Made by a program: the position numbers and the translations under genes. Shown one piece after another: positions 31,977 to 34,685 of a stretch of DNA of 55,790 nucleotides. Source of the DNA: an uncultured Clostridia bacterium (GTDB taxonomy: Bacteria > Bacillota > Clostridia > TANB77 > CAG-465); contig CANRQA010000003.1 in NCBI GenBank assembly GCA_947632635.1, positions 1 to 55,790 of the forward strand, given 5' to 3'. The notes beneath the pieces were generated by a model, which was not told the origin of the DNA, did no database searches, and saw only the letters and a list, made by a program, of their open reading frames with translations. Position 1 is the first letter of the stretch; each line of letters starts with the position of its first letter.

Positions 31977-32013
31977 AGGACTTGTAACTTTTAATTAAGT
32001 TGCAAGCCCTTTT
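31977..32013. terminator. Intrinsic terminator of CC cassette 1 (identical copy at 35434)
   Basis: GGACTTGTAACTT-ttaatt-AAGTTGCAAGCCC plus T-run, preceded by an A-run (bidirectional); its descending arm encodes the last codons of the LysR gene. Confidence 0.8.
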
Positions 32014-32909
32014 TCTTTATTTTCTGATATAAGTTCAATAAATTTACTTGACGCAAAATTTAATGTATTATTTTTTAAAGTAATTATTCCTAAATCTCTT
32101 GACGGAATTTTAGGTTTTACTTTAATTTCATATAATTCTTTACTTTTTAACTCATATTTTATAAACTCTTTTGTAACATATCCTATACCAAATCCTGCTT
32201 TTATAAAATCTACAACAAGATTGTAACTTACTATTTCTATATCAGGCTTAAAATTAATATTATTTTCTTTCATGTAATTATTTAAAAATGCACGAGTATT
32301 TGATGGCTCTTTTTGAGTAATAATATTGTATTTTAAAAGTTCTTCTAATGAGAGAACCTTTTTAGGATCTTTTAAATATTTTTCACTGCAAGCAAAAGAA
32401 TCATGTAATTTAGCACAAACTTTAATATTTAAATCAGAATGATCTTTCATAGGCAAATTTGTAACAAGAAAGTCAATATATCCATTTTTTAGCCCTTTAA
32501 TTAAATTAGTAGTAAGTTCATTTGTAATAGTAATATCAATATGTGGATATAACTTATGAAATTTTTCAAGATAGGGCATTAAAAAATGTTTTGAAACGGT
32601 TGCACTTGCACCAATATGAATTTTTCCCTCTTCTAAATGAATTAGTGAGTTAAATTTATTATTAGCATTTTTAATTTCTTCTAAAATATTTTTAACATAT
32701 TGGTAAAATACGTTTCCCTCTGCAGTAAGTATAACACCTTTTTTAGTTCTAATAAATAAACTACCACCAAGTGCATTTTCGAGTTGTTTTATTGATTTTG
32801 TAACAGCAGGTTGAGAAATATATAATTGTTCAGCAGCTTTAGTAATATTTTGTGCATTGGCTACAGCATAAAATACTTTATATAAATTTAAATCTATATC
32901 ATCATTCAT
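31995..32909 (-). CDS. LysR-family transcriptional regulator
   Basis: N-terminal HTH LYKVFYAVANAQNITKAAEQLYISQPAVTKSIKQLE, substrate-binding domain of typical length; start set at MNDDIDL. Confidence 0.9.
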   Translation of the reverse strand: MNDDIDLNLYKVFYAVANAQNITKAAEQLYISQPAVTKSIKQLENALGGSLFIRTKKGVILTAEGNVFYQYVKNILEEIKNANNKFNSLIHLEEGKIHIGASATVSKHFLMPYLEKFHKLYPHIDITITNELTTNLIKGLKNGYIDFLVTNLPMKDHSDLNIKVCAKLHDSFACSEKYLKDPKKVLSLEELLKYNIITQKEPSNTRAFLNNYMKENNINFKPDIEIVSYNLVVDFIKAGFGIGYVTKEFIKYELKSKELYEIKVKPKIPSRDLGIITLKNNTLNFASSKFIELISENKEKGLAT

Positions 32910-32961
32910 AACGATCACCATTAATATTATACATGTTGTTTTGATAAAATTCAAGTTTATC

Positions 32962-32976
32962 ATAACTAAAAGTTAT
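32962..32976. promoter_or_regulatory. Candidate LysR box (T-N11-A palindrome ATAAC-N5-GTTAT)
   Basis: Perfect inverted repeat in the divergent intergenic region between the LysR gene and the 33047 operon. Confidence 0.45.
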
Positions 32977-33046
32977 CATAATTATAAAATATATGTATTT
33001 GTGTTATATTAAAAAGATATGTATAATATTAGTGGAGGTGAAAAAA

Positions 33047-33904
33047 ATGCTGAAAAATAATTATTTATCAGTAGCACAATTTCAATTGAGATTGGAAATA
33101 GTATGTGATAGTAAAAATGATACTCTAACATTAACCGATGAATATTATAATCAGATGGATGCAAGTATTAATGTTATAAAAAAGCTAAAACCAGATATTT
33201 CAATTTTTCCTGAAATGTCATATAATTCAAAATATAATGATATTTTTAGAAAATTGTCAGAGTCTGGGAAAATGATTGTATTTGGAAGTACATATGTAGA
33301 TGGAATTAATAAAACAATAATTTATTTAAATGGAAAACAAAAGCAAGTAGTAAAACGTTATCCTTGTGGTAGTGAACCAATGATAAGAATATGCGAAAAA
33401 TTAGATGTAAATGATTTTATAACTAGATTTTTAAAAGAACATGAATTTTATGTTTCATCTCAAAAAGTATATGTATTAAATTGCTTAGAATATTATCAAG
33501 CTGCATACATGATAGCAAGAAATAGAGAGCTTGTTTCAGATTTATTTGGGTTTATTGTCCCATGCAGTAATTCAAATCCAGTAGTATTTTTAGAAGAGTC
33601 AAAGGCAATTCATAATCATAATGAGAGTATTTATTCTTTTGTGACAAATAGAGTAAAGGAAATAGGTGAAAGTGGTTATGGAAGTAGTTATGTATTTGGA
33701 CCTATACAATACCATGAAAAAGATTGGCTTAAAGAAGAGGGAATTATTTCAGAAGAACATAATGCAAGTATTTTAACTATGTCAAGTAAAGATGCATCAT
33801 ATTCTTATGGAAGATATGCAACAAAAGAAACAATTAGTAGATTTGGTAGAAGTGATTTATATACAAATACTCCAAAAGATATAATAGTAAAAAATTTAAT
33901 TTAA
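33047..33904 (+). CDS. Nitrilase-superfamily (carbon-nitrogen hydrolase)-like protein
   Basis: Order and spacing of candidate catalytic residues: SIFPEM (Glu), VVKRYP (Lys), VLNCLEY (Cys), plus ESIYSFVTN and GSSYVFGP strands; start at the ATG after GTGGAGGTG. Confidence 0.5.
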   Translation: MLKNNYLSVAQFQLRLEIVCDSKNDTLTLTDEYYNQMDASINVIKKLKPDISIFPEMSYNSKYNDIFRKLSESGKMIVFGSTYVDGINKTIIYLNGKQKQVVKRYPCGSEPMIRICEKLDVNDFITRFLKEHEFYVSSQKVYVLNCLEYYQAAYMIARNRELVSDLFGFIVPCSNSNPVVFLEESKAIHNHNESIYSFVTNRVKEIGESGYGSSYVFGPIQYHEKDWLKEEGIISEEHNASILTMSSKDASYSYGRYATKETISRFGRSDLYTNTPKDIIVKNLI

Positions 33905-33920
33905 GAAAGGAAGATTTACT

Positions 33921-34685
33921 ATGAAAAATATCATTATTGATGCAGGTCCGACTAATGAAAGAATAGATGCTGTTATGAAAATTACAAATATGTCTACAGG
34001 GGCACTTGGGAGCATTGTTGCAGATACACTGCTTGATATGTATAACGAAGAAATTGGAACAATTTTTTATATTTCTTCTAAACTTTCATACAAACCAAAA
34101 ACAGTAAATGAAAAAATACAATTTATAACAATTGACTCTACTGATGATTTGATTAATGCATTAGAAAAAATTTTTAAAGAAAATAAAATAGATGCGATTG
34201 TTCATTCTTCAGCTGTCGGTGATTATAAAGGAAAATATGTTATTCGTGCAGAAGATTTAATTGAAGAAATTGTTGCAAGTGATTTTATAAATTTAGATAA
34301 AGATGAACAAAGAAAAAGACTTCTTGATATTTTTGAAAATCCAAGAACAATTTGCAATGATGATACAAAAATTTCATCTTATGAAAAAAATCTTATGGTA
34401 AAACTTGATCTTACGCCAAAGGTTATATCTAAAATTAAGGAATTTAGTGAAAATACAATGCTTATTGGGTTTAAACTTCTTGAGGGAGTTAGTGAAGAGG
34501 AACTATATGAGGTAGCACATAAACTTCTTATAAAGAATAATGCTCAATATATAGTAGCAAATCTTCTTAATAGAATAGGTAATGGTAAGCATTTTGCTAT
34601 GATTATTGATAAAGATGGAATTATAAAAAAATGTGAGACAAAAGCTGAAATTGCAAGTGCAATAGCAAATCTTATTTTTAAATAA
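33921..34685 (+). CDS. coaB: Stand-alone phosphopantothenate--cysteine ligase-like protein (CoaB / DFP C-terminal domain, streptococcal type)
   Basis: AGPTNERIDAVMKITNMSTGALG matches the CoaB G-x-T-x-E-x-ID-x-VR-x-ITN-x-S(S/T)G motif; HSSAVGDY; IGFKLL; no CoaC flavoprotein domain present. Confidence 0.65.
   Translation: MKNIIIDAGPTNERIDAVMKITNMSTGALGSIVADTLLDMYNEEIGTIFYISSKLSYKPKTVNEKIQFITIDSTDDLINALEKIFKENKIDAIVHSSAVGDYKGKYVIRAEDLIEEIVASDFINLDKDEQRKRLLDIFENPRTICNDDTKISSYEKNLMVKLDLTPKVISKIKEFSENTMLIGFKLLEGVSEEELYEVAHKLLIKNNAQYIVANLLNRIGNGKHFAMIIDKDGIIKKCETKAEIASAIANLIFK

Follow-up and report, generated by a model that had tools for sequence, protein, structure and literature searches.

A LysR-controlled gene pair for a predicted nitrilase-fold amidase and an altered CoaB-fold ligase in uncultured gut Firmicutes

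Layout of the locus

The window analyzed here (i.e., a whole stretch of 55,790 nucleotides [nt] of contig CANRQA010000003.1 from an uncultured Clostridia bacterium) holds four open reading frames (ORFs) at 31995-34685, as described in an earlier note on this sequence. They include a gene for a LysR-type regulator and, diverging from it, a two-gene operon for a predicted nitrilase-fold amidase and a CoaB-like ligase (together, the trio). The note had placed a perfect ATAAC-N5-GTTAT box between a LysR gene and the two-gene operon that it faces, and all of these elements were confirmed. Its ORF list was right in its genes and wrong in two start codons (i.e., LysR at 32909 and amidase at 33047). 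The features of the unit, with lengths in amino acids (aa) and base pairs (bp), are as follows.

31995..32909 (listed ORF to 32963), minus strand: LysR-type transcriptional regulator (Pfam HTH_1, 7.6e-21; LysR_substrate, 4.5e-33)
32926..32954, minus strand: candidate lysR promoter, TTGAAT-17-TATAAT (consensus scan, 10/12 matches)
32962..32976, no strand assigned: predicted LysR operator, inverted repeat ATAAC-N5-GTTAT with T-N11-A, ATAACTAAAAGTTAT (conservation across loci)
32989..33027, plus strand: predicted operon promoter, block ATATATGTATTTGTGTTAT over a weak -35 and TATAAT (six-region intergenic alignment)
33047..33904, plus strand: predicted divergent nitrilase-superfamily (CN-hydrolase fold) thiol amidase, 285 aa (AlphaFold2, Foldseek, hhalign)
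33921..34685, plus strand: predicted CoaB-fold (phosphopantothenoylcysteine-synthetase-like) CTP-type ligase, 254 aa (Pfam DFP; PDB 2gk4 match)
34689..34730, plus strand: predicted intrinsic terminator of the operon, 19-bp stem and then a T-run (-20.9 kcal/mol; z-score of -9.1 versus shuffles)

The true LysR start is most likely Met19 at 32909, since a GGTGA ribosome-binding site precedes this residue and the orthologs align from there. The amidase start was set at 33047 (MLKNNYL; ribosome-binding site GGAGGTG) instead of 32993 because all full-length homologs are ~285 aa long. With both start codons corrected, the region between lysR and the divergent operon is 137 bp long. The window is AT-rich (G+C content, ~26%) and represents chromosomal DNA of a rabbit-gut bacterium, with the housekeeping genes aspS, gpsA, glmU, ffh, rimM, and trmD present. 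In a read-run search, its sequence was present only in DNA runs from rabbit gut; no RNA run with it was found, and the search thus gave no transcript support.

Conservation of the trio across gut genomes

From look-ups and one scan of species-representative genomes, we assembled 67 related loci, 56 of which came from distinct species. The host genomes are all uncultured gut bins labeled Clostridia, Bacilli, or "Tenericutes" (rabbit, sheep, goat, deer, mouse, and other hosts). Wherever the contig allows, with a single exception (L048), a divergent lysR gene lies upstream of the amidase gene and a CoaB-like gene lies directly downstream. The LysR orthologs are 48 to 84% identical and stand divergently beside the enzymes in all of the loci where the contig allows. 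Each species carries one copy of the trio, and sequence identity tracks the taxonomic labels. In the exceptional locus (L048, 214-1047), a small membrane/zinc-ribbon ORF and a gene for a large membrane protein follow the amidase gene instead; its bin is labeled Muribaculaceae, which may be a binning error.

The loci with the trio fall into ~28 neighborhood groups. No recurrent fourth gene family adjoins the trio (57 loci), no functional theme emerged from the Pfam content of 123 flanking proteins (27 groups), and no transporter, pantothenate kinase, or CoaC gene is linked to it in the ~28 contexts. Synteny between the flanks of the window and the related loci was not found either. A PHP-domain gene adjoins the trio in 8 loci only, all of one group. 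In L015 (~1849-7151), the trio stands amid MurJ-MurT-GatD-PHP genes and, in an unrelated neighborhood group, L009 (2151-11707) has it amid FtsI ... MurE-MraY-FtsW-MurG genes; neither arrangement is general across contexts. Carriage by phages or mobile elements was considered and rejected, as no relative was present in viral contigs. At the borders of the trio in the window, there is no target-site duplication; an apparent 9-bp overlap is alignment slop.

The operator and its regulator

The earlier note had taken the perfect T-N11-A box for a LysR operator. ATAACTAAAAGTTAT is the sole exact match to the ATAAC-N5-GTTAT pattern within the window; by itself, the box is not significant, with at least one match in 25 of 100 window shuffles. 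Its reality was settled by comparative conservation and not by window statistics. When the best match was taken in each LysR-enzyme intergenic region, the operator was exact in 30 of 51 orthologous loci and had one mismatch in 4. A symmetric change to ATAAG-N5-CTTAT was found in 16 of the 51 (i.e., a Bacilli-labeled clade); because both half-sites change together, the dyad is preserved there. The operator center lies 67 to 93 nt 5' of the ATG of the first enzyme in 50 of the 51 loci. On these comparative grounds, we regard the box as a real operator that co-evolves with its regulator, and the claim of the note is upheld by conservation across the 51 loci at a fixed distance from the operon in 50 of them. 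In L059 (2065-2771), the intergenic region spans 707 bp (versus the usual ~70 to 190 bp), with 646 nt separating the operator from the ATG, suggesting that extra DNA was inserted between operator and operon.

The candidate lysR promoter adjoins the operator, a position that would fit autoregulation. On the operon side, ATATATGTATTTGTGTTAT is conserved among six intergenic regions and is associated with a -35 element, TTGTGT (32999-33004), a 17-nt spacer, and a -10 element, TATAAT (33022-33027). The palindrome is centered near -65 relative to the predicted transcription start. A weak -35 element with an adjoining conserved block is typical of activator-dependent promoters, and the operon promoter may well be of this kind. 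The unit has all of the features by which LysR units are recognized (i.e., an HTH_1 domain and a LysR substrate-binding domain, a divergent operon, and a T-N11-A palindrome), and the regulator itself scores under every NCBIfam equivalog cut-off. From its sequence features, the region is thus predicted to be an autonomous transcription unit with a divergent LysR gene, a palindromic operator, a weak -35 promoter, and its own terminator.

The first enzyme, a predicted nitrilase-fold amidase

The first enzyme had no match in a Pfam, NCBIfam, and PDB profile search (for Pfam PF00795, none at an E value of ≤0.1); only fold comparison and profile-profile comparison worked. The AlphaFold2 model, built from an alignment of 33 members, had a predicted local distance difference test (pLDDT) score of 90.5 and a predicted template modeling (TM) score (pTM) of 0.91. 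When the model was compared with the PDB by Foldseek, the 50 best matches were all proteins of the nitrilase superfamily (alpha-beta-beta-alpha sandwich; probability, 1.0; E values down to 1e-9). They included aliphatic amidases, D-carbamoylases, formamidase, N-carbamoylputrescine amidase, beta-alanine synthase, and Nit2, with the glutaminase domains of NAD synthetases at ranks 5 to 9. Vanin-1 appeared only at ranks 45 to 50 (TM score, ~0.5; 8 to 9% identity), below the aliphatic amidases, carbamoylases, and NadE domains, and no similarity specific to the vanin/pantetheinase branch over the other branches was found. A link to PF00795 exists transitively only, in that the family-profile hits P0315 and P0319 pass the Pfam CN_hydrolase threshold.

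The motifs FPEM, VKRYP, and NCLEY are present in this order. Their putative catalytic residues (i.e., Glu56 in FPEM, Lys103 in VKRYP, and Cys146 in NCLEYY) are invariant in the 33 family members and in 30 wider relatives, and they directly follow model strands 51-54, 97-102, and 139-143, as in the superfamily. Glu110 (GSEPM), which we propose as a second catalytic Glu, is invariant within the family. Hence the observation in the earlier note of candidate Glu/Lys/Cys motifs in nitrilase-superfamily order held up, with the fold predicted and the triad invariant and in the right order. Because of the fold matches, the profile-profile alignment described below, the invariant triad, and the relatives passing the CN_hydrolase threshold, placement of the modeled enzyme in the nitrilase superfamily is supported. 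It is predicted to be a catalytically intact, very divergent Cys-Glu-Lys amidase.

The homolog search returned 96 clusters, none with a Pfam domain. Clustered at 90% identity, the family numbers ~96 groups, and at 50% identity it numbers ~15; all of them come from uncultured Firmicutes of animal guts. When 1.84 billion representative proteins were searched exhaustively with a profile, only ~15 full-length family clusters emerged. Beyond the family, the same search reached nitrilase domains joined to a STAND NTPase, a TPR array, DUF4062, or a radical-SAM domain. These fused relatives match the PADLOC model CARF_nitrilase at 1e-36 to 1e-54 and also match RT_UG5-nitrilase; the window amidase matches the latter at 1.1e-4, over residues 7-95 only. 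Alignment of the family with the defense-type nitrilase domains by hhalign gave a probability of 99.5% and an E value of 6e-23, with the triad aligned. By these comparisons, the family appears to form a distinct branch whose nearest kin are immune effectors, and our literature search on the pairing gave no description of it. In the defense nitrilase effectors, the catalytic Cys is required for defense (PMC13436386), and their substrate is still open (PMC13275509).

This kinship raises the question of whether the trio is an immune or stress module of toxin type, in which the nitrilase-like protein is the effector and the CoaB-like protein is its partner, sensor, or antidote. Along with the CARF_nitrilase and hhalign matches of the nearest outside relatives and the RT_UG5-nitrilase match of the window amidase, such a reading could draw on the slightly more distant stand-alone relatives found in a BREX/GmrSD island, on the mobility of the trio among neighborhoods, and on other defense-like genes in the window (PDC-S01 ATPase, Sir2, and RhuM). 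However, the window amidase is a stand-alone protein with no sensor module, the CoaB-like protein has no PADLOC match, and control by LysR through an operator that co-evolves with it typifies metabolic functions. Moreover, the trio is present at one copy per species with an identity that follows taxonomy, is absent from viral contigs, and has flanks that are not enriched for defense genes. We therefore consider an immune module quite improbable.

The second enzyme, a CoaB-like ligase with an altered cysteine site

The ligase carries AGPTNERIDAVMKITNMSTG and matches Pfam DFP (PF04127) at 3.6e-23. By sequence, it is closest to the CoaB protein of Streptococcus pneumoniae (PDB 2gk4; 4e-29). Its model (pLDDT, 85) had only PPCS/CoaB structures among its top 32 Foldseek matches (2gk4, TM scores of 0.73/0.80), and it is 31 to 34% identical to 2gk4 over the structural alignment. 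CoaB models were also its best NCBIfam matches (PRK06732, 1e-55; coaB_strep, 7e-49). It nevertheless falls under both equivalog cut-offs (189 versus 265 bits for NF005231; 166.7 versus 217.2 bits for TIGR02114), and it has a ~30-residue helical insert at residues 105-145. CoaC was neither fused nor adjacent to the ligase gene (57 loci), and no flavoprotein family was present among the 123 flanking proteins in 27 contexts. The fold match to 2gk4 and the lack of a fused or adjacent CoaC thus agree with the earlier description of a stand-alone, streptococcal-type CoaB.

The CoaB signature motif reported earlier is indeed present, and it hides a replacement of Arg by Met at the conserved "VR" position. 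The signature reads GPTNE.ID.V-M-K-ITN-M-STG, and V-M-K...N-M-S occurs in 119 of the 120 best relatives. Met19 stands where three solved bacterial CoaB proteins (2gk4, 5int, and 1u7u) have Arg (V-R); it is invariant in 25 of 25 aligned sequences, and Met-Lys occupies the position in 119 of the 120 best relatives. The motifs for nucleotide binding and the first half-reaction are retained (i.e., GPT.E, Asn23, Asp101, and the Lys150 "KISS" motif), with Asn23 and Lys150 invariant and aligned to the motifs of the three solved structures. We take Asn23 and Lys150 to be the equivalents of Escherichia coli N210 and K289 (Kupke 2004; Stanitzek 2004). The inspection of binding-site residues that the note had proposed therefore gave a divided answer, with Asn23 and Lys150 conserved and the cysteine-orienting Arg replaced by Met19. 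This Arg (E. coli R206/Mycobacterium smegmatis R207) is needed to convert the acyl-cytidylate (acyl-CMP) into phosphopantothenoylcysteine, is thought to orient the cysteine, and is conserved from bacteria to humans (PMC7794376). The simplest reading, in our view, is that the ligase still forms an acyl-cytidylate and takes a different nucleophile.

These observations bear on two alternatives that center on coenzyme A (CoA). In the first, the 254-aa protein would be the phosphopantothenate-cysteine ligase of a housekeeping or alternative CoA biosynthesis pathway, with coaC elsewhere and the amidase supplying beta-alanine or cysteine. The CoaB fold, the CoaB models as best NCBIfam matches, and beta-ureidopropionase among the amidase fold matches would suit this role, as would the lack of a second coaB or coaBC in the 55.8-kb window and in the DNA flanking the trio at 56 loci. 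On the other hand, the scores lie under both equivalog cut-offs, the Arg of the cysteine step (PMC7794376) is Met in 119 of 120 relatives, the gene is never beside coaC, and it is under a dedicated LysR switch in a constantly changing neighborhood. The family is also confined to a narrow set of gut bacteria. The pair is probably not part of housekeeping CoA synthesis, and we rate this alternative as improbable.

The second and main rival is sequential salvage or repair. By pantetheinase-like chemistry, the amidase would release the acid from a 4'-phosphopantothenoyl amide that had been imported, was damaged, or was the wrong one; the ligase would re-amidate the acid with the correct amine, and the substrate would induce the operon via LysR. 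The ligase closely resembles S. pneumoniae CoaB in its C-terminal half, vanin-1 pantetheinase belongs to the same fold superfamily as the amidase (Foldseek rank 45), substrate-inducible LysR control suits a salvage or catabolic operon, and the hosts are uncultured gut bacteria. Several invariant Arg and His residues that are specific to the amidase family would likewise suit an anionic phosphorylated substrate. Against this, the lost cysteine-orienting Arg speaks against cysteine ligation, the vanin match is remote (TM score, ~0.5; 8% identity) with other branches scoring better, and cleaving and remaking the same amide costs cytidine triphosphate (CTP) unless the amine is exchanged. Nor was a transporter, pantothenate kinase, or CoaC gene linked to the trio in the ~28 contexts. 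Sequential salvage or repair is therefore unlikely, albeit more credible than a housekeeping role. The plainer proposal of the earlier note, an ordinary CoA/pantetheine salvage module, was not supported, given the sub-cut-off CoaB scores, the missing Arg (PMC7794376), the vanin rank of 45, and the lack of linked CoaC, PanK, and transporter genes.

Coupling of the two enzymes

The amidase and ligase genes are closely spaced and often translationally coupled, with a stop-start distance of -4 or -1 nt in 14 loci and of 0 to 17 nt in nearly all others. In two rabbit-gut bins labeled Bacilli, they form one reading frame (L044, 2682-4319, 545 aa; L045, 5588-7201, 537 aa), so that 2 of the 56 species have a fusion. 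In both fusions, the amidase is N-terminal and the ligase is C-terminal, and the linkers differ. A distant pair without LysR was found in L075 (5608-8830), where the amidase matches the family profile at 9e-40 and the ligase is 41% identical and keeps VMKITNMSTG. Strict co-inheritance, an operator that co-evolves with its regulator, and the two fusions argue strongly, from comparative genomics, that both proteins would form one activity.

The L075 pair lies 3' of a thiamine pyrophosphokinase gene and is followed on the same strand by genes for a flavodoxin/4Fe-4S protein and a GNAT acetyltransferase. Genes for more distant, stand-alone nitrilase-like proteins (277 to 294 aa) in L076 (5139-6885), L077, L078, and L074 overlap the end of an unannotated gene for a protein of 291 to 295 aa. 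This partner was considered as a CoaB-like protein and rejected (hhalign probability, 0.1%). In L076 to L078, the pair adjoins BREX (PglZ and BrxL), GmrSD, and HEPN genes and may be a two-gene defense candidate.

The flanking CC and M14 genes

The trio of the window is bracketed by two CC genes, as reported earlier and confirmed here, and an M14 carboxypeptidase gene lies further downstream.

31270-31968, plus strand: CC1, 232 aa (promoter, 31232-31260; terminator, 31981-32006)
35024-35425, plus strand: CC2, 133 aa (promoter, 34940-34968; terminator, 35437-35462)
35471-36619: M14 carboxypeptidase gene
34735-34815, minus strand: M14 3'-end remnant, 27 codons, 85% identity
31052-31096, minus strand: weaker M14 3'-end remnant

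Both CC proteins end in ...GWYLL[ED]DICC and have only a 64-residue C-terminal domain in common (55% identity). Both genes follow a perfect, TG-extended TTGACA-17-TATAAT promoter (12/12), and their terminators are the same in sequence. The six final LysR codons (EKGLAT) run into the CC1 terminator. By alignment, the trio lies exactly between this terminator and the stop-codon end of the ~90-bp M14 remnant. A CC-M14 cassette thus appears to have been tandemly duplicated, with one M14 copy almost wholly lost at the present site of the trio; accordingly, the "bracketing" amounts to a trio that lies inside a duplicated cassette, in a rearrangement-prone stretch.

The earlier note had suggested that the CC proteins, possibly at their C-terminal Cys-Cys, are where the pair may make or break an amide bond. 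The one point in favor is physical proximity in this one window. No CC1, CC2, or M14 homolog was found in the 67 related loci by tblastn or within 10 kb at the 56 species loci, and CC2 had no homolog in 5.8 billion proteins. The CC genes have their own perfect promoters and terminators, and the trio interrupts the duplicated cassette. With the trio present in 56 species and ~28 neighborhoods that lack CC and M14 homologs, action on the CC proteins is extremely improbable, and the proposed check of co-occurrence among the CN-hydrolase-like, CoaB-like, CC, and M14 genes came out negative, as the gene pair is widespread without CC genes, an outcome that the note itself had named as refuting its idea. 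The LysR-amidase-ligase unit is unrelated to the CC and M14 cassettes and merely lies between their duplicated copies.

Other features of the surrounding DNA were recorded. A 212-nt direct repeat (98% identity; 37013-37224 and 37623-37834) duplicates the 3' end of a methylguanine-DNA methyltransferase gene and flanks an ORF for a 99-aa membrane protein, representing another local duplication in the same stretch. An RmuC-family gene (28223-29507, minus strand) is split into two overlapping ORFs (331 and 119 aa), likely by a frameshift that reflects either a pseudogene or an assembly error. Directly 5' of CC1, an AAA_14/DUF4143 ATPase gene (29673-30986, plus strand) matches the PADLOC candidate PDC-S01 at 1.7e-60. 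Downstream of the ffh-rimM-trmD block, an accessory defense-like cluster (45883-52456) contains PRiA4_ORF3, DUF6904, SIR2-family, and RhuM/Bro-N genes.

Interpretation

Taken together, our preferred explanation is an autonomous LysR unit that would encode a coupled amidase and an altered CoaB-fold ligase and would have nothing to do with the CC and M14 genes; we hold it tentatively, as somewhat short of an even chance. By analogy with glutamine-dependent NAD+ synthetase, both enzymes would work as one machine. The ligase would use CTP to turn a phosphopantothenate-like carboxylic acid into an acyl-CMP. The nucleophile, ammonia or a small amine, would come from an amide donor hydrolyzed by the amidase, and the amide so formed would differ from phosphopantothenoyl-cysteine. 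LysR, upon binding a small-molecule inducer, would switch the operon on. To our knowledge, glutamine-dependent NAD synthetase is the one well-known case of a nitrilase-type amidase joined N-to-C to a nucleoside triphosphate (NTP)-dependent carboxylate-activating synthetase. That the pair moves amide nitrogen onto a CTP-activated acid in such an NadE-like manner is, as a specific claim, possible but doubtful.

Several points weigh against this explanation. The effector domains to which the amidase is most closely related act with no ligase at all, their open substrate (PMC13275509) does not point to a simple glutaminase, and in L048 the amidase gene lacks its ligase neighbor. The fused proteins of L044 and L045 do not separate channeling from sequential action, since consecutive pathway enzymes also often fuse (CoaBC being one case). 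In addition, Lys20 or the family-specific Lys223/His224 might replace the lost Arg, in which case cysteine could stay the nucleophile. Going beyond the coupled amidase-ligase, the pair could be an amidotransferase or amide-exchange machine of a new type, split or fused, that makes a novel amide metabolite of gut Firmicutes; this bolder version seems to us rather unlikely.

Significance

Neither fold is new, and the LysR layout is a classical one. Literature searches yielded no account of the pairing, the amidase family, the Arg-to-Met CoaB subfamily, or the fusions, and the nitrilase-CoaB pairing appears to be undescribed. A nitrilase-type amidase joined to a cytidylate-forming ligase would represent chemistry with no earlier description. 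The amidase family has no Pfam or NCBIfam model, while automated annotation could call the ligase a phosphopantothenate-cysteine ligase; given that it lacks the residue of the cysteine step, reconstructions of CoA synthesis in these bins could therefore be wrong.

The amidase is homologous to the DRT1/UG5, CARF, and STAND nitrilase effectors, and a small, soluble relative from a non-toxic context may ease entry to the question of their substrate (PMC13275509). If, among "metabolic" enzymes, it is in fact the one most closely related to the anti-phage nitrilase effectors, its substrate could reveal the class of amide that these effectors attack, possibly one of pantothenate or CoA type.

Comparison with known systems

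The regulatory part resembles classical LysR divergent activator units, such as CynR-cynTSX and CidR-cidABC, in its divergent layout, the T-N11-A palindrome at approximately -65, the weak -35 element beside a conserved activation site, and the overlap of the lysR promoter with the operator. It differs in that the regulator scores below all NCBIfam equivalog cut-offs.

The amidase has the alpha-beta-beta-alpha fold and the thiol-amidase triad in common with vanin/pantetheinase, AmiE, D-carbamoylase, and Nit2, with TM scores of only 0.5 to 0.6 and no sequence-level similarity. With the anti-phage nitrilase effectors (i.e., CARF-nitrilase, the UG5/DRT1 reverse transcriptase [RT]-nitrilase, and STAND/TPR-nitrilase), it shares a homologous domain, the aligned Glu-Lys-Cys residues, and C-x-[DE]-Y. 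Unlike these effectors, the window amidase is a stand-alone protein of 285 aa with no CARF, RT, or STAND sensor domain and is paired with a ligase and LysR, whereas the defense clade lacks the amidase-family motifs HNHNE and SRFGRSD.

The ligase and the streptococcal monofunctional CoaB (2gk4; TIGR02114) have in common the fold, GPT.E, the Asn of ITN.S, AV.DY, and the KISS lysine motif. The ligase departs from that enzyme in the Met that replaces Arg, the longer helical insert, the sub-cut-off scores, and its partnership with a LysR-controlled amidase instead of coaC.

As a whole, the pair is most readily compared with NadE, in which a nitrilase-fold Cys-Glu-Lys amidase is likewise coupled to an NTP-dependent carboxylate-activating amide synthetase. 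The glutaminase domains of NadE are among the top fold matches of the amidase, and the L044/L045 fusions have the same N-to-C order. In contrast to NadE, the synthetase here has the CoaB (DFP) Rossmann fold and presumably forms an acyl-CMP, rather than being an N-type ATP pyrophosphatase, and the amidase and ligase are separate proteins in most species.

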